Below are positions 2,078-20,487 of a DNA stretch of 64,000 nucleotides, one piece after another (within the stretch, counting starts at the first letter, position 1; every line of letters starts with the position of its first letter). The notes under the pieces were generated by a model. That model saw nothing but the letters and a program-made list of their open reading frames with translations, was not told the DNA's origin and did no database searches. The translations under genes were made by a program, and so were the position numbers. The stretch is from a virus: the IMG/VR virus record IMGVR_UViG_3300032268_001078, positions 64,001 to 128,000 of that record; one strand, 5' to 3'.

Positions 2078-4675
2078 TTAAAAGCTGAAGAATCGCTCAA
2101 CATTTGGGTTTAAAGAAGGAAAACTGTTTGGTCCATATATATCATCATAAATACCTTCTAATTTATTTAACAATACATTATTAAATCCGATGTCAGTATC
2201 TGCAAACTTATCAAGAAATTCAAAAATAAATGGAGGACTATCATTTGTAAACGCTAACACTTCAATTCCATATGGGTTCTTTTTAAGAGGAATAAATTTA
2301 ATTTTATCTCCTTCAGTAATACAAGAGTATTCTTTATCTAAGCCTTTAAATCTTAATAAATCATTATACCAAATACTTGCTTTTGTATTAATAGGACATT
2401 TTAATGCTAATTTACTAAATATTTGACCCGAAGCTGGTGGGCTTGCTATGTAGTTTCTAATTTGTTTTACTCCTGTAGGTTTAGCTAATTTACTATAGTG
2501 AGTTGCTTTGATTTCTTTTCTAAAGTCTTGAATTTTCTTATCAATTTCTTTTTTAGGTTTACCATACATTATATCCATCAATAAACCTTCACCAAATTTT
2601 GAAAACATTGGTGTCATATTTGATTTCATAATGTCCATTCCTTTAATATCTAATTCTTCTGTAGGAACACCTTCTTTATTTACAATAAATTGTGCGTATC
2701 TGCGTTTACCGGCAAAATAACCTCGTTCAAGTACAACTTCTTGTTTTAATTCAAAATAAACATTGTCACAATTAAATTGAGATTTACATAAGTTTTGTAA
2801 GAATGGAGCAGTTTTGTCTTGATATTCTTTAGTAATGTCTAAAGCTACAGGAACTACTTGTTCTCTTGATTTAATGTCAATATCTGGTCTTCTGTGTTTG
2901 ATCAAGTCTTTCATTTCAAAAAACAATGAGTCTGTGTCAGCAGTAACAACATAGTCTTTGTCTGTTTGTAATTCTGTGTTGATTTCTTTGTTTACAAACT
3001 TAATTGATTCTTGGTCTAATCGTTGGCCTGTTAAAGTAATTGCTTTACTAATAAACAAGTTTCCATCACTGTATCTCCAACCATTTTGAGCATAACAACC
3101 ATATAGATCATTAAGCTTAATTTTCATAGCGTGTTGTCTTTTATTATAAAACTCACCAAGTTCCGGGTCTTTCAGCACTTTATATGCTTCCTTCATCTTG
3201 TTTTTATATTCTTTACGTTTTCCAAACCAATCATTTAATACATCAGCTACAATACTATTTTTGTCTGTTCTAAAAATAGTTCCATTTGCTGAAATGACCA
3301 TATTTTTTGTTTCAACAAATTTAATAAGATCACCTACATTCATTTCCATTTGTTGGACTCTACGGTCTGCTGTTACTCGTTCAATTGTTAAGATTTTAGT
3401 TGGGTTTAATTGTTTTAAATCTTCTAAACCCCACTGATTATCATATTTATCCCTATTTTGAATGCAAGCTACAAGTGTTTCAATTCCCATATTAAGATTT
3501 CTAATAATACTAGGATAAAGAGACGTAAAATCTAAATCACTTACCCACTCGTATAAACCAGGCACAGGATCTTTTAAATAACCACCAGCATATTCTTCAT
3601 TTCCTTCCTTCAATGCTGGGTTCATTGTTGTGGGTTTGTTAGGGCTTACGATGTCTTTACGGCGTAAGTATGTTAATATGGCACCTTCATTGAGAGCAGT
3701 ACTATAATAAATATTCTCGTACGAAGTATGGCAAAGATGACAAATATTTTTGGTTAGTTCTATAAACTGAAGCTTATCATCCAATGCTACTAAAATTTCA
3801 ACGTCTCGTAAGTTATAATCAATAAACTTATTGACGTCTTCTTTAAACAAACGATCTAAGCTGCCTTCATATTCTATTTTTCCTAATTTAACATATTTTT
3901 CACCAATTGCTGCTAAAGCATAACTAGGTTCTTGTTTCATAATAAATTTCTTATGAAGCAACATATAATCTAAATGATTTACTCCACAAACTTTAACTGT
4001 AGATTCATCTTGTTGAGTTTTCTTATTGAAAAAATCTTTAATTTGAACGCGTTTTAAGGGAGACAATCGTTTTGCTTGTTGATCTCCTATTACTTGACAC
4101 ATTCTGTGATATAAATAAGGCATATCAAAAAACTGACTATTCCACCCGCTGATTATTGTAGGATCACATTCTTCCCATTTTGATAAAAATCCCATTAATA
4201 ATTCTCTTTCATTATTATATGGAATAATTTCCTTGTTTGGTTCTTCTATGTGTTTTAATTGTTTCTTTTCATCTAAAACCAAACAATAGTATTTTTTTAG
4301 TATAAAATCATAAAGAGCTACTGAAGTGATTTTCATTGGTGCTCGTTTGATGTATTCTGTTGTTAAAGCTCCACCAATTTCACACTCAATATCTAAAAAT
4401 ATTACATTATGCCATTCCGGTACATCATCTTCTTCTTTATAAATGTCTACTAATGCATTTGTTTCAAGAGGAATGTCTATTTCAAAAAATTCTGTTGGTC
4501 TTGTTTTGTCAAAATCTTTACAAGGACTTACTCGTTTTCCATCAATTGTAAAAAACTCACCTTCCTTATCTAATTTATAATAAGTTGGTTTATAATCTAT
4601 TTCTTGCCAACCTAACTTGTCGTCTCTAATAATAATCTTTTTAGTTGTAAAATTAGAATCTATAACTTGATACAT
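2078..4675 (-). CDS. gp43: Family B DNA polymerase (T4 gp43-like) with 3'-5' exonuclease
   Basis: Exonuclease motifs FLDIECE, GWNSQFFDMPY and YNLRDV; polymerase motifs DFTSLYPSII, KIKLNDLYG, TADTDS and KRRYA. Confidence 0.95.
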   Translation of the reverse strand: MYQVIDSNFTTKKIIIRDDKLGWQEIDYKPTYYKLDKEGEFFTIDGKRVSPCKDFDKTRPTEFFEIDIPLETNALVDIYKEEDDVPEWHNVIFLDIECEIGGALTTEYIKRAPMKITSVALYDFILKKYYCLVLDEKKQLKHIEEPNKEIIPYNNERELLMGFLSKWEECDPTIISGWNSQFFDMPYLYHRMCQVIGDQQAKRLSPLKRVQIKDFFNKKTQQDESTVKVCGVNHLDYMLLHKKFIMKQEPSYALAAIGEKYVKLGKIEYEGSLDRLFKEDVNKFIDYNLRDVEILVALDDKLQFIELTKNICHLCHTSYENIYYSTALNEGAILTYLRRKDIVSPNKPTTMNPALKEGNEEYAGGYLKDPVPGLYEWVSDLDFTSLYPSIIRNLNMGIETLVACIQNRDKYDNQWGLEDLKQLNPTKILTIERVTADRRVQQMEMNVGDLIKFVETKNMVISANGTIFRTDKNSIVADVLNDWFGKRKEYKNKMKEAYKVLKDPELGEFYNKRQHAMKIKLNDLYGCYAQNGWRYSDGNLFISKAITLTGQRLDQESIKFVNKEINTELQTDKDYVVTADTDSLFFEMKDLIKHRRPDIDIKSREQVVPVALDITKEYQDKTAPFLQNLCKSQFNCDNVYFELKQEVVLERGYFAGKRRYAQFIVNKEGVPTEELDIKGMDIMKSNMTPMFSKFGEGLLMDIMYGKPKKEIDKKIQDFRKEIKATHYSKLAKPTGVKQIRNYIASPPASGQIFSKLALKCPINTKASIWYNDLLRFKGLDKEYSCITEGDKIKFIPLKKNPYGIEVLAFTNDSPPFIFEFLDKFADTDIGFNNVLLNKLEGIYDDIYGPNSFPSLNPNVERFFSF

Positions 4676-7956: not shown

Positions 7957-8460
7957 TTAACGTTGTTTGTCGTTTTGGAATTGTCCGTTGTAAAGTTTGT
8001 CTTCTGTTACTGGAGTACAATCGTGGAAATACATTTGAGCTACTCTACTATTTTCTTCAATGAATATAGGATAATTTACAAACATATATGTTCCTACATT
8101 ATTTGTTTGAAATCCTGGATCAAAAATACTTGATTGGATTAATGCTCCATTTCTCATCAATGAACTTCTTTGACGAATTAAACCTACTCTATTTGGTGCT
8201 ATATTACAACCTTCATTCATGATTACATCATAAACTCCAGCATATAATAACCATCCAAAACGACCATCAATCATTTGTTTTTCTACTCCAACGTGTTGAT
8301 TTACTTCAGTTTTGTCTTTCAAAACTTTACCTACTCTTCCACCAACTTGATTGATTGCTTTAATTGATAAGTCAAAGCCTACTTGAGCTGGTTTACCATG
8401 TGAATTACTATCTAAAGTAATTAGACCTTCTTCTAATATTTGATCTGCGTTTAATATCAT
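7957..8460 (-). CDS. dcd: dCTP deaminase / dUTPase superfamily protein
   Basis: Motifs GFDLS, RQRSSLMRNG, FDPGF and RVAQM. Confidence 0.8.
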   Translation of the reverse strand: MILNADQILEEGLITLDSNSHGKPAQVGFDLSIKAINQVGGRVGKVLKDKTEVNQHVGVEKQMIDGRFGWLLYAGVYDVIMNEGCNIAPNRVGLIRQRSSLMRNGALIQSSIFDPGFQTNNVGTYMFVNYPIFIEENSRVAQMYFHDCTPVTEDKLYNGQFQNDKQR

Positions 8461-9188
8461 ATTTCTTTATTTTTGTTTTTATAATAATTTTTATTTAGAT
8501 ATTTGTAATCACTTTTTTCATCTTTAAGTAATTTGAACATTTTAGTGATACCTATATTATTACTTAATCTACATTCTTTAACTGAGTTATAAGTAGTGTT
8601 AGTACTTATTTTTAAAACTTGGTTTCCTGTTTTTGGACCAGCTCCTAATTTTGGTATTCCTTTTCCACCAGCTCCTGGTTTTGGTTTTCCTTTTTGTTTT
8701 AAATCAGGTTTTCCTTTTCTTTTACTGGGGATTCCTGTTTTTACTATGCTTAGATTTTTACAATGTTCTTCAGTTTTTTTCTTTCCGGTTAATTTTTTAC
8801 TTACATTAGGTTTTTTAGAGTTTCTTTGAGCAATACTAGCCGCGTCTGAATGTGTTCCTGTTCTAGATTCAGTTATTTTTGATCCTCTATTTAAGTATTT
8901 TTCTGTTTTTGTAGGTCCATTAATACTTCCAAAACTTTTATTAGTTTTATTGTAAAACAAACCATTATTAGCCGCGTCGTAATACTCTAACCAATAAATT
9001 TCTCTTTCATTTAAATGTTTCAAATCGATACAATGTTCTAATATTTCTTTTTTAAAATTATGTTTACCAATTTTTTTTAAAGCTTTTTTAAACTCCGTAC
9101 CACCACCATAATAAGAAGAAATATTGTTTCTGTCTTTTCCTAGGTATTTCATACCATCAATCAAATTAGTTGTTATGTAAATAATCAT
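8457..9188 (-). CDS. GIY-YIG homing endonuclease (Seg-like) with NUMOD3-like basic repeats
   Basis: N-terminal IIYITTNLIDGMKYLGK...YYGGG, E-x-YW and YN; Lys/Gly/Pro-rich repeats; overlaps the dcd start by ATGA. Confidence 0.85.
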   Translation of the reverse strand: MIIYITTNLIDGMKYLGKDRNNISSYYGGGTEFKKALKKIGKHNFKKEILEHCIDLKHLNEREIYWLEYYDAANNGLFYNKTNKSFGSINGPTKTEKYLNRGSKITESRTGTHSDAASIAQRNSKKPNVSKKLTGKKKTEEHCKNLSIVKTGIPSKRKGKPDLKQKGKPKPGAGGKGIPKLGAGPKTGNQVLKISTNTTYNSVKECRLSNNIGITKMFKLLKDEKSDYKYLNKNYYKNKNKEI

Positions 9189-9229: not shown

Positions 9230-9925
9230 TTAGTAAAGAAGTTTATGAGAAGAAGCCATGTCAATTGATTTAAAATATTCAGCTCTAACTTCTGCTTTAT
9301 CCATAAATACTCCTGTTAAGTGATTAGTAACCATTGCTGAACCTACATGATTTGTTCCTCTACAACTAACACATTGGTGTTCTCCAACAATAGTTACTGC
9401 TACCCCAATATTACCCTCACATACATTATCAACAGCATTGTGAATAGCCATTGTAAGTTGTTCTTGAATAGCACCTCTTCTCCCAAAATGCTCTACAAGA
9501 CGATTTAGTTTACTTAAACCAATTACTTTAGCATCTGGTCCAGGAATGTAAGCGATATGTACTCTTCCTAAAATAGTTTCATGATGATGTGAACACATTG
9601 ATGTTAATGGTATGTTTGTTTGAACTACCATTCCTTGGTATCCATCACTTGGAAAAGCAGTTATTGATGGAGGAGCATCATATCTTCCTCTCCATTGTTC
9701 AAAAACATACTTTTTCGCGATACGACGAGGAGTGTCACTACTATTAGGATCGTTTTCCCAATCACAACCTAATGCTGTCAAAAATTGACCATAAGCTTCT
9801 GCTGCTTTATCTACCATAGCCCATTTTTCTTTTTCAGTAAATGGAAAGCCGGGCGCTATTCCATTTGCATAACCTTGTTTTACTACTTCTAAATCAAGTG
9901 TAAAAGTTTTCTTATTATTTGTCAT
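9230..9925 (-). CDS. folE: GTP cyclohydrolase I
   Basis: Motifs DTPRRIAK, SMCSHH, GLSKLNRLV, IQEQLT and HQCVSCRG. Confidence 0.95.
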   Translation of the reverse strand: MTNNKKTFTLDLEVVKQGYANGIAPGFPFTEKEKWAMVDKAAEAYGQFLTALGCDWENDPNSSDTPRRIAKKYVFEQWRGRYDAPPSITAFPSDGYQGMVVQTNIPLTSMCSHHHETILGRVHIAYIPGPDAKVIGLSKLNRLVEHFGRRGAIQEQLTMAIHNAVDNVCEGNIGVAVTIVGEHQCVSCRGTNHVGSAMVTNHLTGVFMDKAEVRAEYFKSIDMASSHKLLY

Positions 9926-10100
9926 TGTTTTTGATTTTTTTTTCTGTTTCTAAAATTCGTTTTGATGTTGTTGATGCTAAAGTAAATATTTGTATCCACA
10001 ATTTATCAATTTCTCTTCTTTGTTTATCTATAATATAACCAAAATAACATAAAATCCCAAAAATTACTGCTAAAATTATATATAAGATTGTTAATGTCAT
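9915..10100 (-). CDS. Small membrane-anchored hypothetical protein
   Basis: N-terminal hydrophobic helix followed by a coiled-coil-like tail; overlaps both neighbours. Confidence 0.6.
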   Translation of the reverse strand: MTLTILYIILAVIFGILCYFGYIIDKQRREIDKLWIQIFTLASTTSKRILETEKKIKNNDK

Positions 10101-10498
10101 AATTTTTCTGGTGGTGTGTTAAATATTCTTTTTACTTGTTCTGATATTGAAATAGGCTGTCCTTCATTATCAACTCTAACAAAAGTCATCTTAGTGGCTA
10201 ATAATACAACTTCATCTGCTCTAAAAACATTGTATGCTCTTGCTTCTACTTTAAATGTAGCTGATGTATTTCCTATTTTAGATAATTCAGCATATATCTT
10301 AACTAGATTGTTTTCTTTAGCTGGTTTTTTAAATACACATTCATCAATAGCCATTGTGATCATATTTTGTGTTCGACATTTTTCCATAGCATAAGCAGCT
10401 ACAGCAGAGTCTAACCATGCTAAAAGTACTCCTCCAAATAAATTACCGTGGAAACCTAAGTCTGATTTTTTAACTGGGTGTGTTGATAGTAAATCCAT
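10097..10498 (-). CDS. Hotdog-fold acyl-CoA thioesterase (YciA-like)
   Basis: DLGFHGNLFGGVLLAWLDSA, FKKP, GNTS and TFVRVD..G.P pattern. Confidence 0.85.
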   Translation of the reverse strand: MDLLSTHPVKKSDLGFHGNLFGGVLLAWLDSAVAAYAMEKCRTQNMITMAIDECVFKKPAKENNLVKIYAELSKIGNTSATFKVEARAYNVFRADEVVLLATKMTFVRVDNEGQPISISEQVKRIFNTPPEKL

Positions 10499-11292
10499 TA
10501 AACTGCTCTTTTAGTATCGTATGATATAATATGATCTCTACCAGTCCAATTGTATCCCATTTCAAATGCTTTTTCTAAACTAATTGGATACTGTTTAATC
10601 AATTCTTCTCTGTTATCACCAGCTGGCATTAACCATGTTTTATTTTTAGGAATGTTGTGTTTTATTCTAAACTCTTCAATTTCTTGAATATTTTCTTCTG
10701 TTCCGTCGTAAACTGGTTTGTAATGATAATCTGAATGGTAAGCTAGAGTTTTACTAATTGCGTCATGATTTAAACGTAATTTGTTATGTTGGTCAATCAT
10801 CTTTTGATCAACGAGTTTACCCATTGGTGTAGTGACGTCAATTTTAGGTACAGAGTTACTAAACTTAGGGCTAAGAGATACCAACCCAAATGGATAATCT
10901 GTTTCAATAAAATGGCTGCCTTCTGTTTCAATAGTTATAAATATACCTCTTTCGTTAGCAAAGTGAGTTAATTCATTACAAAGATCAGGTTGCATTGTTG
11001 GTGAACCACCCGTTAACATCATTTCAGTAATTGTTGGATTTTCATCATAAATTTTGATGATATCATTAAATGTGTAAGTTCCTTTACCTGGATGAATACT
11101 TGTGTACCAAGAATCACACCAGCCTCCAGCACCAAACCAACAACGATGTGTACATCCAGTTGTTCTAATAGCTACTGTTGGTCTACCTTGTCTTGAACCC
11201 TCACTTTGAATACAAGTGTAGAGTTCAAGAATTGGTAAAGTTTTATTATAATCAGTAATTCTACCTGGTTTTTTAATTTCTGTCATAAGCAT
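10498..11292 (-). CDS. queE: 7-carboxy-7-deazaguanine synthase (radical SAM)
   Basis: ELYTCIQSEG, RTTGCTHRC...WCDSWY (CX3CX7C), LTGGSP, TIETEG and SLSPK. Confidence 0.9.
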   Translation of the reverse strand: MLMTEIKKPGRITDYNKTLPILELYTCIQSEGSRQGRPTVAIRTTGCTHRCWFGAGGWCDSWYTSIHPGKGTYTFNDIIKIYDENPTITEMMLTGGSPTMQPDLCNELTHFANERGIFITIETEGSHFIETDYPFGLVSLSPKFSNSVPKIDVTTPMGKLVDQKMIDQHNKLRLNHDAISKTLAYHSDYHYKPVYDGTEENIQEIEEFRIKHNIPKNKTWLMPAGDNREELIKQYPISLEKAFEMGYNWTGRDHIISYDTKRAV

Positions 11293-11515
11293 CTTGTAGT
11301 GTCTGTAATGTTGTTATTCCAACGTTTTTCCATACTTCTACTCCATCTTTTAACAAGATAGTTGTAGGTACAGCTTTTATTCCATATGATACCGCTGTAT
11401 CTATATCGATAGTTATATCTATTTTTTCAACAGGTACATTTAATGTACTGATTATTGGTCCGTAAGTCCTACAAGGTCCACATGTAGGAGATGTAAAATA
11501 TATAAATTTTTTCAT
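11273..11515 (-). CDS. trxA: Thioredoxin
   Basis: CGPC active site and cis-Pro motif AVPT. Confidence 0.9.
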   Translation of the reverse strand: MKKFIYFTSPTCGPCRTYGPIISTLNVPVEKIDITIDIDTAVSYGIKAVPTTILLKDGVEVWKNVGITTLQTLQDAYDRN

Positions 11516-11522
11516 TTTCTAT

Positions 11523-11551
11523 AATATAATTAATTTTGTTTAAATTTCCAA
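11523..11551 (-). promoter_or_regulatory. Promoter TTGGAA-17 bp-TATATT upstream of trx-queE-thioesterase-folE
   Basis: -35 at 11546-11551, inside the 3' end of the endonuclease gene; -10 at 11523-11528. Confidence 0.6.
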
Positions 11552-12096
11552 ATAAAACCATATGCTGTTGGTTGTTTTCCTCTACAAACAGCCCCAACAC
11601 CATCACTATTAGGTTTTTTCATAAATACTTGTGCTTGAATTTGTGATTCAAATTCTCTAATAAAAGTTCCATTTAAATCATATTGTATGACTGGTGTTTG
11701 TGACCATGTATTTTTTCTTTCTTTTAAATGACTTCGTTTTAATTTTATTTTACTTTTATGTTCATCACTAAATAATTTTCCTTTATGAGATTTTGATTTA
11801 CCTTTAGTTTTTTTACTAATTTTTTGATTTCGTTCATTAGTGAATGTAATAGTAGTTGATCCTCCACCACCAAAATTTTTATTTTCTAAAATAAATCCCC
11901 AACTTCTATATAAAAATATATAATGACTTTCCCAAAATTTCCATTCATTTAATGATACTTCATCTATTATTTCAAATTGAATGTTTTTACCAAATTTTTT
12001 ACGATGATCTCCTTTTCTACCTTGAATAGAATTGGTTTTACCTATGTAAAATGGTATTTTATTTCCATTATGTAAATAGTAGATAAAGGTGTTCAT
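11530..12096 (-). CDS. GIY-YIG homing endonuclease with C-terminal NUMOD1-like DNA-binding domain
   Basis: FIYYL...FYIGKT...R..H, E..WI and N; C-terminal PVIQYDLNGTFIREFES...TAYGFIWKF. Confidence 0.85.
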   Translation of the reverse strand: MNTFIYYLHNGNKIPFYIGKTNSIQGRKGDHRKKFGKNIQFEIIDEVSLNEWKFWESHYIFLYRSWGFILENKNFGGGGSTTITFTNERNQKISKKTKGKSKSHKGKLFSDEHKSKIKLKRSHLKERKNTWSQTPVIQYDLNGTFIREFESQIQAQVFMKKPNSDGVGAVCRGKQPTAYGFIWKFKQN

Positions 12097-12098
12097 AA

Positions 12099-12563
12099 TT
12101 ATCCTTTGTAAATTGCTGTATTTTTTTCGTGTTCTCTAAATTCAACTTGAGTTACTTTAACTCTACCTTCTGTTTCTAGTTGAACAAAATTATTTAGTTT
12201 ATTGTAAAAATATTCAGCAAAACGTTCTGCTCCTACTGATGGAATAATTCTTAATTGGATTATACCAGACTCGTGCATTTGCATAAATAGAGGTAAGTAA
12301 GGATCATCTTCAGCTACAATAGTTGTATGATCAAGCATATAATCCATCCATACTTTAGGATTCATACCATCAATAGTACCTTTAGCTCTTTTCATTCCTC
12401 CGAAGTCCCAAACCCAATTACGCTCATCAAGTTCACCTTCAAACCATACTCTAAAACTTACTGCATAACCATGCAAAAATTTACAGTGAGTATCTTCTGC
12501 TTTCCATTGTCTAAAACAAGCAGAATATCCATCAAATAACTTTGTTGATTTAAATGTTTTCAT
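12099..12563 (-). CDS. queD: 6-carboxy-5,6,7,8-tetrahydropterin synthase
   Basis: HCKFLHGY, VWDFG, LDHT, AERFA and VEFREHEKNTAIY. Confidence 0.9.
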   Translation of the reverse strand: MKTFKSTKLFDGYSACFRQWKAEDTHCKFLHGYAVSFRVWFEGELDERNWVWDFGGMKRAKGTIDGMNPKVWMDYMLDHTTIVAEDDPYLPLFMQMHESGIIQLRIIPSVGAERFAEYFYNKLNNFVQLETEGRVKVTQVEFREHEKNTAIYKG

Positions 12564-12569
12564 ATTAAT

Positions 12570-12598
12570 AATATAATAAAATTTATTTTAAAAACCAA
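12570..12598 (-). promoter_or_regulatory. Promoter TTGGTT-17 bp-TATATT upstream of queD
   Basis: -35 at 12593-12598, -10 at 12570-12575. Confidence 0.65.
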
Positions 12599-13232
12599 AA
12601 GCTTTAATAGTATAATCAAAAGGATTTCCTTCAATGTTTTTAACTTGATCTAACATCATTTGTGCTAATTCTCTTACTTCAACTTGAGCGTGTTCACTGT
12701 TTCTTAACTGTTGAAAATGCGCAAAACTACGCCAGTTAAACATAATATCCATTGTTATTTGACTATTAAATGTCTTAAAAAACCTAGCTGATTCTTTCGC
12801 GCGTTTTCTACCTAGTATAGGAGTTAAATCTTTTAAACAATCATGATATAATTTATTAGCTCTTTTTGTATGAGTAGATAAAATATACAACCATTTATCT
12901 TCAACTTCTGTAGTTTTTATATCTTCCCAATCTTCAGGTAAATAAAAATTATCTTCTTTTAGCTCTTTATATCTAGCACTTTCACCATTAATACTAACTC
13001 CAATTCTGTGTTTTAGTAAATGAATATGAGTTGCTTGATCTACTGTAACTAAAAAATGTAAACTAGACTTTTCAAAAGGTGTGTGATGACCTTCTTTAGC
13101 TAACATCTCCAATAATTTAGGAACTCTATTTATTTTATCTTCATTTAAATCTCTAGATGTACTAGTCCATGCCGAACATGCATGAACTAAATCGTCTCCA
13201 TAATGTCCCAATAATTCTACTTTGTTTTTCAT
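12588..13232 (-). CDS. thyX: FAD-dependent thymidylate synthase
   Basis: GHHTPFE, KHRIGVSINGESARY, NWRSFAHF and LRNSEHAQVEVR. Confidence 0.92.
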   Translation of the reverse strand: MKNKVELLGHYGDDLVHACSAWTSTSRDLNEDKINRVPKLLEMLAKEGHHTPFEKSSLHFLVTVDQATHIHLLKHRIGVSINGESARYKELKEDNFYLPEDWEDIKTTEVEDKWLYILSTHTKRANKLYHDCLKDLTPILGRKRAKESARFFKTFNSQITMDIMFNWRSFAHFQQLRNSEHAQVEVRELAQMMLDQVKNIEGNPFDYTIKAFGF

Positions 13233-13236
13233 AATT

Positions 13237-13455
13237 TTAACCTTGTTTTGTTCCTAATGCCCAAACTGATTGTGGAAATAATTCTTTTCTCAGTTTTAAT
13301 ATAATGTCTCTTTTTTCTTGAAATTTATCCCCATAATAAGGATGATATCCATTTAAAACTTCTTTTGTTATTTCATAATCTAATTTAGCTATTAAAGCCA
13401 TTTTTTCTATTCTTTCTTTATCCATTATTATAGTAATATCTTTAAAAATAACCAA
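13237..13455 (-). CDS. Hypothetical protein (true start may be the Met at 13425)
   Basis: Fills the gap in the operon between GT2 and thyX; no motif recognised. Confidence 0.5.
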   Translation of the reverse strand: MVIFKDITIIMDKERIEKMALIAKLDYEITKEVLNGYHPYYGDKFQEKRDIILKLRKELFPQSVWALGTKQG

Positions 13456-14149
13456 CGTCTTTATAAAAGTAATTAAGATTTTTTCTATTTTTATAGTTAT
13501 TTAATAATAATTTTATCATTTTTCCATAACCATATCTTTTAAATCTTCTATTATTTTGAGTAATTAAATCTGGTATTAATAAAAATCTTGATGGTTTTAC
13601 TTGACGACTTAAAAGCCAATCTTCAGATTGAGTTGCTTTTTCATCATATCCTCCTAGTTTTTTAAAAACATCTTTTTTAACTAATGTGAAACCACCAATA
13701 GCAAATGGTTGGGTTTTAGAAAGATACCAAGTTATTAATAAGTTTATACGAAATAATAGCCAAGCTCTAACATCAAATTCTCCTTTATACCATGGAGTAG
13801 TACCCACCATGTCAATTGGTCTATTATATATACTATCAAACGCTGTTTTGATTGACTGTCTATCTGTAAAAGTGATATCTGCATCTAAAAATAAGATATA
13901 AGGTGTTTTTACTAATTTAGCTCCTGCATTTCTTCCTATTGCTGGAAGTCCTCCATCTATTATTTTTAAATTTAAATCAAGTTCAAAAGCATAAGTATTA
14001 GCTAATACTCTAGTTCTATCTGTAGATTTAGCATCAGCAAGAATAATTAAAGTATTTCCAATATTTTGTTGTTTTAATTCTAAAAATAATTGTTTAATGT
14101 TTTCTTCTTCGTTTTTACAAGGAATAACAATAGTTAAGATTTTTTCCAT
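13442..14149 (-). CDS. Glycosyltransferase family 2
   Basis: TIVIPCKNEE, DAKSTDRT, GRNAGA, FLDAD (DxD), GGYDE and ED. Confidence 0.9.
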   Translation of the reverse strand: MEKILTIVIPCKNEEENIKQLFLELKQQNIGNTLIILADAKSTDRTRVLANTYAFELDLNLKIIDGGLPAIGRNAGAKLVKTPYILFLDADITFTDRQSIKTAFDSIYNRPIDMVGTTPWYKGEFDVRAWLLFRINLLITWYLSKTQPFAIGGFTLVKKDVFKKLGGYDEKATQSEDWLLSRQVKPSRFLLIPDLITQNNRRFKRYGYGKMIKLLLNNYKNRKNLNYFYKDVGYF

Positions 14150-14820
14150 AATTTTAAAGTATTATATTCTGAGTAGTATGTTATATGAGAACAATTTTCA
14201 ACCCAATCTCCACAATTCATATAACGAATACCATCAATCACTTTATCAGAAGGTGAATGAATATGACCACAAACTACTGTATGACAGTTTCTTTTTTTAG
14301 CTTGTCTTACCATTTCATTTTCAAAATCAACCATAAATGAAATAGCAGCTTTAATATTGTCTTTTAAAAACTTAGATAAACTTTTTTTCTTACCGAATTT
14401 TTTTAAGAATCTATCAATTACAATTGCAAGATCATACCCTAAAGATCCAAGCATACCAAGCCAATGCATTTGAACAATACCGTCGTACTTATCCCCATGA
14501 CAGAACCAGATTCCATCTTCTACATACTCATCTACAACTGTAATATTACCAATTTCTAAAGGTGTGTATTTTCTTAAAAATTCATCATGGTTTCCAGAAA
14601 TCCAAATAATTTGTTTGTCTTTTGAAAGTTTTAGAAATCTTCGAATAACTCTAGTTTGATTATAATCAAACTTTTTGTATTTTTTAAATAACCATCCGTC
14701 GATAATATCACCAACTAAAATGTATCTTTCATAACTTTCATCTTCAAGTAAACGTAGAACGTTTTCTGCTTGACATCCTTTTGATCCAACATGGATGTCT
14801 GATATTACTAGTGTTTTCAT
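14134..14820 (-). CDS. Calcineurin-like metallophosphoesterase (LpxH-like, UDP-2,3-diacylglucosamine hydrolase family)
   Basis: SDIHVG, VGDIIDGW, SGNHDE, HGD, CGHIH and NCGDWVE. Confidence 0.85.
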   Translation of the reverse strand: MKTLVISDIHVGSKGCQAENVLRLLEDESYERYILVGDIIDGWLFKKYKKFDYNQTRVIRRFLKLSKDKQIIWISGNHDEFLRKYTPLEIGNITVVDEYVEDGIWFCHGDKYDGIVQMHWLGMLGSLGYDLAIVIDRFLKKFGKKKSLSKFLKDNIKAAISFMVDFENEMVRQAKKRNCHTVVCGHIHSPSDKVIDGIRYMNCGDWVENCSHITYYSEYNTLKLWKKS

Positions 14821-15326
14821 TTATAATAAATAGCTTTTAAATGTCGTGAACCACCATTTTCGTCGTCCATTCCATAACCAATATACCAAAAATCATTATT
14901 TTCTTTAGGAACACTCATAATACACATTTCTTCTCTGTATTTGTCATCATATTTTTTTAATGCAAAAATACCTTCAACACTTTTTGCTCCTTTGTACTCA
15001 TAGTGAATTTTTAAGTACTCATAAGTAATTCCACTGTCTAAAATATCATCAATAAGATAAACGTGTTTGTCTGTCACGTCTACCCTACTGTCTAACAACA
15101 TTTTAAATCCAGTGTTTTCTGTTCCTGTGTATGAAGCACAATTTACAAAATCACAAATAATATTCATACGTTGGAGTTCTTGCATCAAATCCGCGTAAAA
15201 CATAAAACCTCCACGCATTACTCCAATCATTACAATTGGTTCGTCTACGTTGTGTCTCATCATAATTTTCTCAACAATTTTGAGAACACCCATACGAATT
15301 TGATGTGGATTTAATAATACTTGCAT
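14817..15326 (-). CDS. hpt: Hypoxanthine/guanine-type phosphoribosyltransferase
   Basis: VMRGGFMFYADL, SY.G, PRPP-binding LIDDILDSGIT and IGYGMD. Confidence 0.85.
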   Translation of the reverse strand: MQVLLNPHQIRMGVLKIVEKIMMRHNVDEPIVMIGVMRGGFMFYADLMQELQRMNIICDFVNCASYTGTENTGFKMLLDSRVDVTDKHVYLIDDILDSGITYEYLKIHYEYKGAKSVEGIFALKKYDDKYREEMCIMSVPKENNDFWYIGYGMDDENGGSRHLKAIYYK

Positions 15327-15481
15327 TATACTAGTTCCTCTACAATACCTACTAATTCTGATATGATTAAAATAATTGCTCCAAGGCTAATGCTCCAGAA
15401 TAAAGCAACATAGCCAGAGATTCTAACAGCTGATTTTAAAAAGCTGACTGACTGATGTAGTTTAGGATCTGGATGTTTCAT
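15326..15481 (-). CDS. Small membrane protein, 51 aa (below the track cutoff)
   Basis: Manual translation MKHPDPKLHQSVSFLKSAVRISGYVALFWSISLGAIILIISELVGIVEELV; its stop overlaps the hpt start (TAATG). Confidence 0.7.
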   Translation of the reverse strand: MKHPDPKLHQSVSFLKSAVRISGYVALFWSISLGAIILIISELVGIVEELV

Positions 15482-16334
15482 GTTTGTCTAAAACTTGTTT
15501 TACGTATTCTACAACATATTCCCAACTTACAGGACCAAATTCATCAGCATATTGAACTGGATCTTTACGACCTAATTTCAAAAATGCTTCTACTCTTTCT
15601 ACACTTGATGCTGATTTAAAATCACTAAACCATTCTTTTTCATAACAAACATTGTCTCCAACTGTATATTCAATACTATGTTGAATTGGTTTATAAGATG
15701 TGTTTGTTTTGCTGTAAACTTTATCAAAGTTCAAATGTAAAAAAGTGCAACATTCTTCTCCATCTTTTAAAATATCAAATTTATCTCCTAACAAATATGG
15801 AGTATAATATGCTACTTTTTCAGCACCCCAGTTACCCATTTTAAAAGCAAATTCATCTGCATCTCTAAATTCTTGTCTGCAATCTGGATAGATACTATGA
15901 TCACCTGCGTGGATGCCCATAGCAATTTCAACATTACAATTTTTAGATTCTGCAATTGATAAAGCTACTGCTTGAATAATTGAACTAAAGATTTTGTTTC
16001 TGTTTGGTACTACTGTTGCTTTCATATTTTCTTCAGCATAGTGACCTTCAGGAACTTCTGCTCCTCCTGTTACTAGAGCTGAATTGAGTAGTTGGCTTAG
16101 TCCATCTAATTTAATTACTTGATACTTAACTTTTGGATAATAATACTCATCTTCATAACGAGAATGTGCATTAACATATCTTACTAAAGCTTGAGCACGT
16201 TCAAGTTCAATTGAGTGTTTTTGCCCATAGTCAAAAGACAGTGCGGTTACTTCATAGCCCTTGGCGAGTAGATGAAGTAACAATGTGGAGCTGTCCATAC
16301 CTCCACTTAATGATAGTACTGCTTGTTTATTCAT
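15462..16334 (-). CDS. queC: 7-cyano-7-deazaguanine (preQ0) synthase, variant lacking the C-terminal Zn-cysteine cluster
   Basis: SGGMDS, FDYGQKH..E, TVVPNRN and HAGDH..YPDCR. Confidence 0.92.
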   Translation of the reverse strand: MNKQAVLSLSGGMDSSTLLLHLLAKGYEVTALSFDYGQKHSIELERAQALVRYVNAHSRYEDEYYYPKVKYQVIKLDGLSQLLNSALVTGGAEVPEGHYAEENMKATVVPNRNKIFSSIIQAVALSIAESKNCNVEIAMGIHAGDHSIYPDCRQEFRDADEFAFKMGNWGAEKVAYYTPYLLGDKFDILKDGEECCTFLHLNFDKVYSKTNTSYKPIQHSIEYTVGDNVCYEKEWFSDFKSASSVERVEAFLKLGRKDPVQYADEFGPVSWEYVVEYVKQVLDKHETSRS

Positions 16335-16750
16335 TATAACTTTATTGTTCTTAGTGTTTTAATAATAATTTCTTCTGGTTCAAATTTACTTACTTCTGGG
16401 TCTTTACTTGCGGCATATTCAATACTTCCTTGGCTTAATGTTTCAACCCAAAATGTTTTGATCATTTTAGATCTAATGATTTTACCATCTTGATTTCTAG
16501 TCACTTTTATTACAGCAATTTCATGTTGCCATGAACTTCCAATCGTACTATCACCTAAATCATGAATTAATTGTCCCTTAATAATCATATTAGGTTCATA
16601 ACTTTGTGGATTGTAAATAGTATTAGTAAGTGTTCCCCAAGAAGTACCTGATGTTGATGTTAATATACCTGTAGCTGTAGCACTTGAGGGCAAAGTAGTG
16701 GATGTAGTAGTTGCTGTAGCACTTGATGGTATAGTAGAGGTTGTTGTCAT
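16334..16750 (-). CDS. Hypothetical protein with Ser/Thr low-complexity N-terminus
   Basis: Duplicated TxPSSATAT segment; its stop overlaps the queC start. Confidence 0.55.
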   Translation of the reverse strand: MTTTSTIPSSATATTTSTTLPSSATATGILTSTSGTSWGTLTNTIYNPQSYEPNMIIKGQLIHDLGDSTIGSSWQHEIAVIKVTRNQDGKIIRSKMIKTFWVETLSQGSIEYAASKDPEVSKFEPEEIIIKTLRTIKL

Positions 16751-16763
16751 CTTATTTATTTTA

Positions 16764-17021
16764 TTAAATATATTCGTTACCGTTTTGTTTACTTAAAGCT
16801 GTAAAATAATGGTGTACAAGTTTTCCTTTATCTTCTGTTGGAATTGTTGTTGCCATAACTAAATGCATATTATCTTCAAAAGTTTCCATTTGGTCTTTAT
16901 TAGTATAATCAATGTTTTCTAAAAAACCAAATGCTAAATTTCTAGTAGACCCATCAGGAGACGACAACATACCAAGTATATTATCCCACATATCAGTATC
17001 AAATTTTAGTAATTCTTCCAT
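16764..17021 (-). CDS. Hypothetical protein (start moved to MEELLKFD)
   Basis: The longer track start at 17057 lies inside the promoter hairpin, so the ATG at 17021 is preferred. Confidence 0.55.
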   Translation of the reverse strand: MEELLKFDTDMWDNILGMLSSPDGSTRNLAFGFLENIDYTNKDQMETFEDNMHLVMATTIPTEDKGKLVHHYFTALSKQNGNEYI

Positions 17022-17036
17022 ATTGCTATTTATTAT

Positions 17037-17070
17037 AATATAAGAAAGGGTTGGCAAAATACCAACCCTC
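17037..17070 (-). promoter_or_regulatory. Composite terminator hairpin and promoter (TTGGTA-17 bp-TATATT) heading the queC-hpt-thyX operon
   Basis: Sense GAGGGTTGGTATTTTGCCAACCCTTTCTTATATT. Confidence 0.75.
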
Positions 17071-17092
17071 TTAATAGATTTTTTAAAATAAA

Positions 17093-17290
17093 TTAAAAAT
17101 CTTGTTTTGCAATTCCAGCTTCGATAGCTGCTAATGCTTTAGCTTCAGACAAAATAGCTGTCATTTTGTTTCCTGCTGCGTTTGTTCCTTTAGCGATAAA
17201 ACCACCACGTGATGTTTTGCTAATTGTTACTTCTACGAAAGCTACTCCTTTTTGTTTTGCTTTCAAATCGTATGCTACTAGTTGTTCCAT
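17093..17290 (-). CDS. Small basic protein, possibly a cysteine-less DUF5679-like protein
   Basis: AYDLKAK...ISKTSRGGFIAKG...KM pattern; family assignment is from recall only. Confidence 0.45.
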   Translation of the reverse strand: MEQLVAYDLKAKQKGVAFVEVTISKTSRGGFIAKGTNAAGNKMTAILSEAKALAAIEAGIAKQDF

Positions 17291-17293
17291 ATT

Positions 17294-17503
17294 CTATATT
17301 TCTGTTATTTGTTGTGTATTGTTAAAGTATGTTTCTAAAAAACTTTTAGGATAAAGTATTATTTTTCCTCTATAAACTGGATTAGATACTTCTCTTATTT
17401 TTGTTTGTACATTAAATTTTATTGCTTCGTTATTTACTTCTTTTCCTAATTCTCGTCCAGCGGCTTTTCCTAAAAAATCGTATAATGATAAATACTCGTC
17501 CAT
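17294..17503 (-). CDS. Small conserved-looking phage protein
   Basis: LSLYDFLGKAAG..LG..V and YRGKIILYP..FL; translationally coupled to the TGT-like gene. Confidence 0.6.
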   Translation of the reverse strand: MDEYLSLYDFLGKAAGRELGKEVNNEAIKFNVQTKIREVSNPVYRGKIILYPKSFLETYFNNTQQITEI

Positions 17504-18279
17504 TATTGCATAAATTGTTTAAATGTTTCTATATTTTTTAAAGCTAAATCTAATTTTTCTTGATCTTGAGATTCAAATACATTTTCTACTTTAGTTTTAG
17601 GCTTAAAGTTGATTCCTAAGTGTTCTGTGTAATCAATCATTTCAAATCCTAATGTAACGGGATTTGAAGTATCACAAGATTTAATTTCAGGATAAAAAAC
17701 TGATGGATAGTGTTTGAATTCTGATGCAAAATTAGTTCCTAATAAATGATGATGAACTTTAGAACTCAATCTACCTGTAGCTTTTAAATAAGTAATAAAC
17801 TCTACTCTACCTAGTGTTTTTCTTGTTTCAAAGTGTTCGTGAGTTGAAAAATCATCATAAAACTGACCTAAATGATTAAAACCAATGTATTTTACTCCAT
17901 CTGCTACGAGTTTTTCATATAACTCTTCAGCTTCAAACATATTGTTTGCTTGTAATACAACCATAATTTTATCACTGTCGATTTTTGTTCTCCAGTGTTT
18001 ATAGTTTTCATATGTTTTATCTGCATCATTCCAAGCATCAGGAACAATAAATGCATTAGGTTTAATTTTTACATAAAGATCTATTAATGTTTTGTCGTCT
18101 TTCAAGTCATCTTCAAAAAGACCATTATCCATCATAATAAATCTGCCATTTTCTCTTGCTTTCAAAAAATGATTCATATAATCTTCATCGTGAGCAAACG
18201 ATGGTAAGAAATAATCAAAATCATTAAATTCAAAACTTTTTTCTAAAAGTGCTTTTGGGCATTCGTGACTAACTTTCAT
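17503..18279 (-). CDS. Divergent tRNA-guanine-transglycosylase-fold protein, candidate DNA deazaguanine transglycosylase (DpdA-like)
   Basis: TGT-like motif order MDNG..E, VPD, VLQ, IGF, HHLLG and SCDTSNP; no Zn domain; adjacent to the preQ0 genes. Confidence 0.65.
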   Translation of the reverse strand: MKVSHECPKALLEKSFEFNDFDYFLPSFAHDEDYMNHFLKARENGRFIMMDNGLFEDDLKDDKTLIDLYVKIKPNAFIVPDAWNDADKTYENYKHWRTKIDSDKIMVVLQANNMFEAEELYEKLVADGVKYIGFNHLGQFYDDFSTHEHFETRKTLGRVEFITYLKATGRLSSKVHHHLLGTNFASEFKHYPSVFYPEIKSCDTSNPVTLGFEMIDYTEHLGINFKPKTKVENVFESQDQEKLDLALKNIETFKQFMQ

Positions 18280-18285
18280 AACTAT

Positions 18286-18319
18286 AATATAAGAAAAAGG
18301 GCTTGGAAAACCAAGCCCT
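18286..18319 (-). promoter_or_regulatory. Composite terminator hairpin and promoter (TTGGTT-17 bp-TATATT) for the TGT-like gene
   Basis: Sense AGGGCTTGGTTTTCCAAGCCCTTTTTCTTATATT. Confidence 0.75.
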
Positions 18320-18333
18320 ATTAAAGTGTTTTA

Positions 18334-18615
18334 TTAAAACGCATATGGGTTAGGTACAATATCTGCTGAACCAGAATAAATTATAGCTACACCAGATGAT
18401 TGAGTTACTTGATAAATATAACCATATACACCCGCACCCGCTGAAAAACTAACATTATTTAAATTTCCACTTAAATTACCAATTTTAACGTTTGCTATAG
18501 TATTAGTTACTGGGTAGTACCAAAATCCATCAGTAGATGCTGATACAGATCCTGATAAAACTGTTCCGCCCCCAAATCCATATGGGTGTTTCGAAATATC
18601 TATTTGTCCTTGCAT
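18334..18615 (-). CDS. Hypothetical beta-rich small protein, probably late or virion-associated
   Basis: Gly/Ser-rich SGS composition like the structural genes; ATATTTAT motif upstream. Confidence 0.55.
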   Translation of the reverse strand: MQGQIDISKHPYGFGGGTVLSGSVSASTDGFWYYPVTNTIANVKIGNLSGNLNNVSFSAGAGVYGYIYQVTQSSGVAIIYSGSADIVPNPYAF

Positions 18616-18636
18616 TTTATTTGTTTATAATAAATA

Positions 18637-20487
18637 TTATACAATTTCGCAAGCTCCACCAGCACACGCTGCTTGATCCATTAAGTTTGTCATATCACTC
18701 ATTTCTACTACATTTCTCAAATCAATATTATGTAAATGTTGTACCATTTCATTGTATTGTTCTTCTGTAATTGTTTCAAACGGAGTTTGTTTATAACTTC
18801 CTAAGTCTTCAGGTAAACAAGACATTGCTGTGTAGTCTTCTCTGTGTTTCCACATCCATTCACCTACTTGTTTCCACTCACCTGCTTTGATATTGATAGT
18901 AACAGATACGTTATTGAAATTTTGACCGCTTCTATGACCTGGTCTTACCCATTCCATATTAAATCTGCGAGTTCTTTCTAATAAATCAAATGTTGATTCT
19001 GCTCTTGTTGTAGCTCCTACTGGTGCTGCTTGAGGAACAGAAATAACTGCTTGTTGACTTGGATTAAAGAAATCGTCTTCAACTAGTTCTGGGTGATTAA
19101 TAGATAAATAAGTGTAAATAGCTTCATTTTTACCTACTCTAATTCTACGAATATAGAAATTGTCGTGCCAAGCGTGAATTCCACTTGAACTTCCTAATAC
19201 TAAACTTGAAGTTCCACTTGGTTTTACAGTGGTTGAACGAGCTGCTTTTCTAATTCCTAAAAGTTTTGCTACTCTTTCGTTTTCTTCTTTAACTACTTTA
19301 GCACCTTCTTCTAAGTTGATGTTATCTAATTTTCCAGATGCAATTCCTGTAATACCTACACCTACTAAAGCGTCTTTTTCAGTTGTTTTTTTCCAAATGT
19401 CTCTTAAGTAGTGGAAGTCTGTGTAACTAGCTTGTAAAGTTCCTAAGAATGAAGCTGCTTTTGAACGAGCATTGAAATCTGCTTGATCTACTACATCTGT
19501 AGCGTTGATTTCACACAAGTTACAGAATTGGTATGGTCTTAAAGCAATTTCAGCACAAGGGTTAGTACCATAGTCTTTATCATTACTGAATATAAATCCT
19601 GGTTCACCTGCATTTGATGCTTCAACTTTAGCCCACAATCCCATAAATTCGCTTTCTGTAATTTTATGGCGCAAGATTACTGCTGAGTTGTTAGCTCTTC
19701 CACGTTGAGGATTAGTTTCCCACCAGTTTCCAAATTTACAAGTTAACATATCTTCATCATCAAAATCAAACAATGAAATCAATGCTGCTCTTCTAATTCC
19801 TCCACTTAATACTGCGTCAGCTAAGTGACAAGCAATATCGTGACATTCTACAGATGTTAATTTATCTCCTGCTTTTTTACGATCAAGAATTTTTTGGACT
19901 TGAAATAATACTTCTTTTAATGGTTCTGGTCCTGGAGCTTTTCCTCCTGCAGTAACTAATTGTTCTCCTTTTGCTCTAATGTCTCTAAAGTCAAATTTTG
20001 GTCTAGCTCCACCTTTCAAATAAGCTTTCATTAAAACATGTACTGCATCAGCCCATCCTTCAATAGAGTCGTTGATAAGATAGCGTTTTTCGCGTGTTGG
20101 AATTGTTATTTCAGGTAGTTTATCGATATGATGGCCTTGTACACTAAATCCAACGCCACATCCACTAAGAAGCAAAAACATAATTTCACTAAAACTCTTC
20201 ATATTGTCAATAGGAAGGAAACTACAATTGAACATTCTAGCATTGTTAATGTCTGCTGGTTTTCCAGCAAACTGCAATGATCTCATTGATGGTAAAACTT
20301 TTTTGTTGTAAACCATTTTGTAAACTTCATTGATTTCATCAGCTAATTCTGGGAATTTAGCTAAATGCATTTCTTTATTTCTGTCCACGATTTCTTCCCA
20401 GGTTTCGCGGCGAGATTTTTCGGGGATATGGCGAGCATACTTCATGTATGTCGTGATATCCGACAATATATTTTGTGTTGTGTTCAT
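18637..20487 (-). CDS. nrdJ: Class II (adenosylcobalamin-dependent) ribonucleotide reductase
   Basis: PSMRS, FNCSF, TNPCAEI, FCNLCE, TTVKPSGT and C-terminal CAGGACEI; no C-terminal Tyr pair. Confidence 0.85.
   Translation of the reverse strand: MNTTQNILSDITTYMKYARHIPEKSRRETWEEIVDRNKEMHLAKFPELADEINEVYKMVYNKKVLPSMRSLQFAGKPADINNARMFNCSFLPIDNMKSFSEIMFLLLSGCGVGFSVQGHHIDKLPEITIPTREKRYLINDSIEGWADAVHVLMKAYLKGGARPKFDFRDIRAKGEQLVTAGGKAPGPEPLKEVLFQVQKILDRKKAGDKLTSVECHDIACHLADAVLSGGIRRAALISLFDFDDEDMLTCKFGNWWETNPQRGRANNSAVILRHKITESEFMGLWAKVEASNAGEPGFIFSNDKDYGTNPCAEIALRPYQFCNLCEINATDVVDQADFNARSKAASFLGTLQASYTDFHYLRDIWKKTTEKDALVGVGITGIASGKLDNINLEEGAKVVKEENERVAKLLGIRKAARSTTVKPSGTSSLVLGSSSGIHAWHDNFYIRRIRVGKNEAIYTYLSINHPELVEDDFFNPSQQAVISVPQAAPVGATTRAESTFDLLERTRRFNMEWVRPGHRSGQNFNNVSVTINIKAGEWKQVGEWMWKHREDYTAMSCLPEDLGSYKQTPFETITEEQYNEMVQHLHNIDLRNVVEMSDMTNLMDQAACAGGACEIV

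Follow-up and report, generated by a model that had tools for sequence, protein, structure and literature searches.

Our analysis of a 64,000-nt stretch of phage DNA indicates that a purine phosphoribosyltransferase (PRT), encoded beside FolE or fused to it, is a recurrent part of phage 7-deazaguanine gene clusters that has gone unremarked in the literature searched. The stretch, referred to here as the window, comprises bases 64001-128000 of the 179.7-kb IMG/VR genome IMGVR_UViG_3300032268_001078, which belongs to a large, uncultured phage from water. Its hpt gene (14817-15326, minus strand) lies in a cluster that encodes the pathway to 7-cyano-7-deazaguanine (preQ0) together with a homologue of the DNA transglycosylase DpdA3. 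In published accounts, phage 7-deazaguanine modification consists of four synthesis enzymes and a DpdA transglycosylase. No phosphoribosyltransferase is mentioned by Hutinet 2019 or Cui 2023, and full-text searches, with subscription journals outside their scope, found no literature linking purine PRTs to phage deazaguanine systems. The PRT adds a new accessory component, or variant, to this known system and does not define a new kind. We consider it probable that the window enzyme, a hypoxanthine phosphoribosyltransferase (HPRT), recycles the guanine released by DpdA3, feeding it by way of guanosine monophosphate (GMP) and guanosine triphosphate (GTP) back to FolE.

The HPRT protein and its deazaguanine-linked clade

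The hpt open reading frame (ORF) is intact, starts with ATG and encodes 169 aa. The protein passes PF00156 (57.8 bits; cut-off 26.3) and aligns end to end with the TIGR01203 HGPRTase model (1-164 of 167) at 96.3 bits, for which the equivalog cut-off is 150. Every match of a phmmer search of the PDB is an HPRT or HGPRT, the best being 4pfq (1.2e-19). An AF2 model built from 40 sequences has a predicted local distance difference test score (pLDDT) of 92.7, and Foldseek superimposes it on the HPRTs of T. cruzi, E. coli, S. aureus and B. anthracis with template modelling scores of 0.79-0.84, showing the type I PRT fold with its hood subdomain. By sequence, the protein belongs to a tight metagenomic family of 67-96% identity, followed by matches at 38% and then by cellular HPRTs at ~31%; a tblastn search of cultured phages with the HPRT gave weak matches only (<36% identity), none of them to a known deazaguanine phage.

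Residues that define the active site of HPRTs can be located individually. The loop V-Y-L-I-D-D-I-L-D-S-G-I-T that binds phosphoribosyl pyrophosphate (PRPP) occupies residues 89-101 and fits the family pattern. Its core, read directly at 15030-15053, is the canonical IDDILDSG (residues 92-99) that a previous sequence-only reading of this DNA had described. Within it, D93-D94 correspond to human E133-D134, and D97, the Asp of the D-S-G part, aligns in PDB alignments with D137 of the human and T. cruzi enzymes, the residue that contacts purine N7. The earlier statement that this Asp is retained holds well beyond the window gene: D97 is invariant in 141/141 sampled HPRTs, including 77/77 of the deazaguanine-linked clade described below, and is still kept where that clade diverges to about 35% identity. 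K125 corresponds to human K165, which recognizes the 6-oxo group, and the invariant D154 to human D193. W147 takes the position of the stacking residue F186 and is W in 75/77 clade members. In the catalytic loop S65-Y66 are conserved; the remainder of the loop is divergent and modelled with lower pLDDT (74-82). With its full set of catalytic residues the enzyme looks intact, and we predict that it is an active guanine phosphoribosyltransferase, probably accepting hypoxanthine too.

Compared with classic Hpt enzymes (TIGR01203; E. coli 1G9S/5KNR, T. cruzi 1TC1, B. anthracis 3KB8), the phage protein has the same fold, length, PRPP loop and SY loop, equivalents of Asp137, Lys165 and Asp193, and a purine-stacking aromatic residue. 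It differs in being only 24-30% identical to them and scoring under the NCBIfam equivalog cut-off, in the changes F186→W, Y194→D and L192→M and a small insertion that mark the phage clade, and in the location of its gene in a DNA-modification cluster instead of among housekeeping genes. The window HPRT does not group with the GpT-like subfamily of purine PRTs: its best PDB matches are classic HPRTs, archaeal purine-PRT chains match it weakly (1vdm, 2.6e-5), and 4trb and 4z1o are absent from the list of matches.

We scanned IMG/VR with a profile, which returned at least 259 viral contigs with HPRT relatives, and analysed the best 80 of these (32-79% identity) taking as a control the 80 viral HPRTs nearest to a bacterial one. 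Deazaguanine genes occur no more than 10 kb from hpt in 80/80 loci of the first set and in 26/80 control loci, the other 54 having none nearby. The association of hpt with deazaguanine genes, whose absence the sequence-only reading had named as refuting its proposal, is far beyond chance. Gene by gene, the 80 HPRT loci contain QueE in 72, FolE in 69, QueD in 62, QueC in 61 and DpdA3 in 59 cases, and a contig end truncates most of the loci in which one or more of them is missing. In a FastTree phylogeny of 141 HPRTs, a quick tree with many long branches, all 77 linked sequences form one clade with a Shimodaira-Hasegawa-like support of 93, while three cellular and all 52 unlinked viral HPRTs fall outside it. 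The window HPRT belongs to a subclade of eight sequences inside the linked clade, set off by a branch of 1.17 substitutions per site. Only in this subclade is hpt found between queC and thyX/queD, having moved from folE to queC.

Linkage of two PRT families to folE

Across the main body of this clade, the genes run queE-hpt-folE, and hpt immediately precedes folE in 62/69 loci. Six loci of other HPRT lineages contain a diverged folE followed directly by hpt. We also sampled from the DpdA3 side, where at least 564 viral contigs were found and 80 loci kept; 16 of these carry a PRT of a second family, the GpT/Gpt type, which lies directly downstream of folE in 16/16. Among cultured phages, Flavobacterium phage immuto encodes a GpT-type PRT (gp211) directly upstream of folE, with Sulfolobus GpT-1 and GpT-2 and E. 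coli XGPRT as best PDB matches (4trb and 4z1o at the top), and phage phiST carries a homologue of the GpT-type PRT, CGPG_00045, near its ribonucleotide reductase gene. Both phages thus also encode a purine PRT, but one of the GpT/Gpt type, whereas that of the window phage is a classic Hpt.

In two further phages the PRT and FolE are joined in a single protein, annotated 'GTP cyclohydrolase I' in both: (i) in Vibrio phage VpKK5 (Queuovirinae; L091:5998-6900) and (ii) in the siphovirus Stenotrophomonas phage vB_SM_ytsc_ply2008005c (L092:5754-6647). The fusion proteins are ~300 aa long, their first ~115 residues align with the GpT-type PRT and keep its RGG, VDDIxDSGxT and WxVFPWE motifs, and both genes adjoin queD and a DpdA gene. 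Matches of tblastn searches under annotated folE genes suggest the same fusion in further Vibrio, Stenotrophomonas, Pseudomonas and Sphingomonas phages. By sequence comparison, then, two PRT families keep company with folE in at least five arrangements. That two families fill the same place beside folE points to the activity common to both, 6-oxopurine salvage.

The PRT is not universal in these systems. Campylobacter phage CP220, whose DNA contains 100% of the deoxynucleoside of 7-amido-7-deazaguanine (ADG) in place of dG, has no PF00156 match, and in 15/38 DpdA3-centred loci that include folE no PRT was found within the fetched DNA. Because of these cases, the PRT fits the part of an accessory helper, replaceable by the host Hpt, better than that of an obligatory step.

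The gene cluster of the window phage

The genome has a G+C content of 29.7% and nearly all of its genes lie on the minus strand, as does every gene of the cluster, which spans 9230-20487. Family searches identify FolE, QueD, QueE and QueC, the enzymes of the preQ0 pathway, all within the cluster. Its features are the following.

9230-9925, minus strand: folE (GTP cyclohydrolase I), by family search
10097-10498, minus strand: hotdog (4HBT) thioesterase, by family search, a recurrent cluster member
10498-11292, minus strand: queE, by family search; 66.7% identity with QueE of Flavobacterium phage immuto
11273-11515, minus strand: thioredoxin-like protein, recurrent in 48/80 HPRT-centred loci
12099-12563, minus strand: queD, by family search
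12588-13232, minus strand: thyX
13442-14149, minus strand: family 2 glycosyltransferase, by family search
14134-14820, minus strand: calcineurin-type metallophosphoesterase, by family search, ATGA-coupled to hpt
14817-15326, minus strand: hpt, 169-aa classic Hpt-family 6-oxopurine phosphoribosyltransferase, by family, PDB, tree and model
15030-15053, minus strand: PRPP/purine loop I-D-D-I-L-D-S-G, residues 92-99, read directly from the sequence
15326-15481, minus strand: 51-aa ORF with a single hydrophobic, transmembrane-like stretch, conserved in relatives
15462-16334, minus strand: queC, 290 aa, with the QueC domain at residues 4-216 and a C-terminal extension, by family search
17503-18279, minus strand: homologue of DpdA3-type DNA transglycosylases, by sequence identity, without a Pfam match
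18637-20487, minus strand: NrdJ, class II RTPR-type B12-dependent ribonucleotide reductase, by family search

The DpdA homologue has ~32% identity to DpdA3 of immuto and of CP220 over 98-99% of its length, and its assignment to the DpdA3 subfamily follows the definition in Cui 2023. Several small ORFs lie between it and queC. Phage immuto also encodes close relatives of the window QueE, FolE, QueD, QueC and thioesterase. At the nucleotide level, a megablast comparison of the 12-kb cluster with cultured phages yielded no match. FolE, QueD, QueE, QueC, the thioesterase and DpdA3 of the published DpdA3 phages (PMC10516641) are homologous to those of the window phage; the published descriptions of these phages, however, list no PRT component, and the window phage has neither QueF nor DpdN, unlike the DpdA3 phage systems compared (PMC10516641). 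The sole QueF match in the genome is a cross-hit on FolE. That the phage carries a 7-deazaguanine in place of G is predicted from its genes, and because the genome lacks QueF the inserted base is probably at the level of preQ0. The ~70-aa C-terminal extension of the queC product could affect which base is made (preQ0 or ADG).

The sequence-only reading had described hpt as translationally coupled in the queC operon. Our analysis confirms that hpt is part of the queC transcription unit, yet its coupling is to the intervening 51-aa ORF instead of directly to queC, whose stop codon is 136 nt from the hpt start. The hpt start overlaps the stop of the 51-aa ORF (TAATG, 15324-15328), the start of this ORF overlaps the 3' end of queC by 20 nt, and at the downstream end the metallophosphoesterase start codon overlaps that of the hpt stop (ATGA, 14817-14820). 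A search of the minus strand from 17045 to 9000 found no terminator-like sites. Eight related contigs contain the 51-aa ORF at 50-65% aa identity, and all seven full-length matches stop precisely where hpt starts.

The hotdog thioesterase is present in 19/80 HPRT-centred loci and in immuto (E 8.5e-52); to our knowledge it is part of no described deazaguanine pathway. The glycosyltransferase has no homologue in any of the 80 related HPRT loci, and in the flanking DNA fetched for the closest relatives no homologue of it or of the metallophosphoesterase was found. In two of these relatives (L004 and L014) hpt leads straight to thyX/queD, and the flanks extend past hpt to folE. A homologue of the phosphoesterase (E ~1e-64) lies inside the cluster of another subclade, for example in L078 with the order queE, metallophosphoesterase, thioesterase, hpt, folE.

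Further genes in and around the cluster were noted. Immediately downstream of queC is the gene (16334-16750, minus strand) of a 138-aa protein whose N-terminus is rich in Thr and Ser and contains the repeat TTSTxPSSATAT two times; the protein has no family match, and a homologue follows queC in immuto (gp029) and in close relatives. Two ORFs, named GIY-YIG-like from a reading of their sequence alone, lie after folE (8457-9188, minus strand) and between queD and the thioredoxin gene (11530-12096, minus strand); where gene orders were compared, the closest relatives have no ORF at either position. Beyond the first of them, downstream of folE, is a gene resembling dCTP deaminases and dUTPases (7957-8460, minus strand), and a family B DNA polymerase is encoded at 2078-4675. 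An AAA_28 (NadR-like) kinase, annotated 'thymidylate kinase', adjoins DpdA3 or is one gene away from it in immuto and CP220 (L002:16478-17002; L003:15819-16361), and the present genome encodes a homologue outside the window (G000:C1:133977-134498). We considered this kinase as a mark of a nucleotide-level route to modified DNA and rejected it as a general feature, since it was found within 10 kb of DpdA3 in 0/80 metagenomic loci.

Proposed guanine recycling, its alternatives and its meaning

The TGT family of base-exchanging transglycosylases is established to free one guanine per swap, and by analogy we expect DpdA3 to do the same. In the proposed cycle, (i) DpdA3 would exchange guanine in phage DNA for the preQ0-level base, freeing one guanine per exchange; (ii) the phage HPRT would convert the freed guanine and PRPP to GMP; (iii) guanylate kinase and nucleoside-diphosphate kinase of the host are assumed to take GMP to GTP; and (iv) FolE, QueD, QueE and QueC would make the next deazaguanine base from GTP. 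In this way a fully G-replaced genome would need roughly half as much guanine. Free guanine is both a product and a competing substrate of the exchange, and we infer that its removal should help to bring replacement to completion. The sequence-only reading had called the loop carbon-neutral, a description that has to be dropped: each turn spends one PRPP, and C8 is lost as formate in the GTP cyclohydrolase I reaction. The loop would conserve the guanine ring, not carbon.

Guanine as the substrate is favoured by the chemistry of the purine pocket. In HPRTs the D137-type Asp forms a hydrogen bond with N7-H of the purine. A 7-deazaguanine has no N7, and its substituent sits exactly there. The invariance of this Asp favours a guanine substrate, because a 7-substituent would press against its carboxylate; the clade has diverged to about 35% identity and its relatives make different end products, yet the N7-contacting Asp is kept. 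The proposal of the sequence-only reading that HPRT salvages excised guanine to GMP and GTP for FolE is therefore the best supported of those we considered, on account of the invariant Asp, the recurrent adjacency or fusion of FolE and PRT in two families and the accessory nature of the PRT, although its substrate and the source of the guanine are deduced from these features.

Several observations weigh against this preference. Neither in vitro nor in E. coli has DpdA3 been shown to act on DNA (Cui 2023), so that it is a presumed source of the guanine. A PRT encoded with FolE, QueD and QueE, TubE, which the sequence-only reading did not cite, is a proven transferase of 7-carboxy-7-deazaguanine (CDG) to PRPP (PMC6112128). 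The TIGR01203 score lies below the equivalog cut-off, and the clade shows coordinated changes around the purine pocket (F186→W in 75/77, Y194→D/N, L192→M, V187→Y in half of the members and a one-residue insertion). Relocation of hpt to queC and the long branch of the window subclade could reflect a change of function. Finally, the co-occurrence counts share ancestry within the clade and are not independent events.

Apart from recycling, the explanation that survives best, which we nevertheless regard as unlikely, is general purine salvage, in which HPRT would raise GMP and GTP, for FolE, RNA and DNA, from any free purine such as that from host nucleic-acid breakdown. The enzyme chemistry would be the same as in recycling, and the 54/80 control-set viral HPRTs without deazaguanine genes nearby are consistent with such a role. 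In the sample, however, members of the window clade always occurred with deazaguanine genes (77/77), and its tight adjacency to folE, or the fusion of PRT and FolE, is specific. Base exchange yields free guanine stoichiometrically, whereas nuclease breakdown of host DNA gives nucleotides, not free bases.

It appears quite improbable that the enzyme instead acts on the deazaguanine itself. In that case preQ0, CDG or ADG would react with PRPP to a ribonucleotide, which NrdJ would reduce and a polymerase incorporate, a pre-replicative route that could operate alone or beside DpdA3. Its precedents are TubE and ToyH of the tubercidin and toyocamycin pathways (PMC6112128), purine-type PRTs encoded, as in the window, with FolE, QueD and QueE (and QueC in the case of ToyH); ToyH is the proposed preQ0 counterpart of TubE (PMC6112128). 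Moreover, the structure with which TubE is aligned in Figure S2 of that paper, given there as '4Z10' and taken by us to be 4Z1O, is among the top PDB matches of the immuto-type PRT. But TubE, which acts on CDG, is of the GpT-like type, and its cluster lacks a transglycosylase and contains a GMP reductase and Nudix tailoring enzymes, while the window enzyme is a classic Hpt and not of the GpT/TubE type.

The phages themselves give evidence on both sides. The DpdA3 subfamily goes with complete G replacement (Cui 2023), and 100% replacement by an enzyme whose activity was not reconstituted would be consistent with a pre-replicative contribution, as would the ADG nucleoside seen in CP220-infected cells (Cui 2023), the presence of NrdJ near DpdA3 in 42/80 loci, and, in the window subclade, the position of hpt after queC together with its long branch and pocket changes. 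Against this stand the 100% replacement that CP220 achieves although it encodes no PRT, the invariance of the N7-contacting Asp, toward which a 7-substituent would be directed, and folE, not queC or queE, as the conserved neighbour of the PRT gene. Siphoviruses with PRT-FolE fusions also include carriers of DpdA types other than DpdA3, and for these complete G replacement is not reported. Every known deazaguanine phage still encodes DpdA (Cui 2023). Complete replacement of one base by pre-replicative means is known from the Z-genome phages (PurZ/DatZ/MazZ) and from T4 (dCTPase, dCMP hydroxymethylase, dNMP kinase), the analogy behind the pre-replicative proposal; there, synthesis of the new deoxynucleoside triphosphate (dNTP) is paired with destruction of the canonical one. 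A PF00625 search of the window phage's genome for guanylate kinase gave no match, and no clear enzyme for the removal of dGTP was found, an HD-domain candidate being a weak match far from the cluster; a DNA transglycosylase homologue is present. Nor is the AAA_28 kinase a general neighbour of DpdA3 (0/80 loci).

A narrower version of the same idea is that the linked clade, and especially the fast-evolving, queC-adjacent window subclade, has been retuned for preQ0 or ADG through W in place of F186, D in place of Y194 and the altered catalytic loop, for which we likewise see little likelihood. If it were true, retuned HPRT, NrdJ and polymerases would make complete G replacement in DpdA3 phages at least partly pre-replicative, and they would constitute the first natural viral route to a 7-deazapurine dNTP. 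A non-catalytic or regulatory role for the PRT fold, such as sensing guanine, PRPP or (p)ppGpp to modulate FolE, is very improbable: HPRT-family proteins are known to bind (p)ppGpp and the PRT-FolE fusions could be regulatory, but all catalytic residues are conserved across the clade, which is unexpected for a pure sensor.

Recycling of guanine by HPRT, if it takes place, would explain how these phages can afford the replacement of every G, given that without it a swap costs two guanine nucleotides, and would suggest what prevents free guanine from reversing the exchange. The PRT would then be a marker gene for heavy-replacement systems. Its role also bears on whether 100% replacement by DpdA3 is truly post-replicative, a question that cultured phage-host pairs with a PRT (immuto, phiST) make testable.

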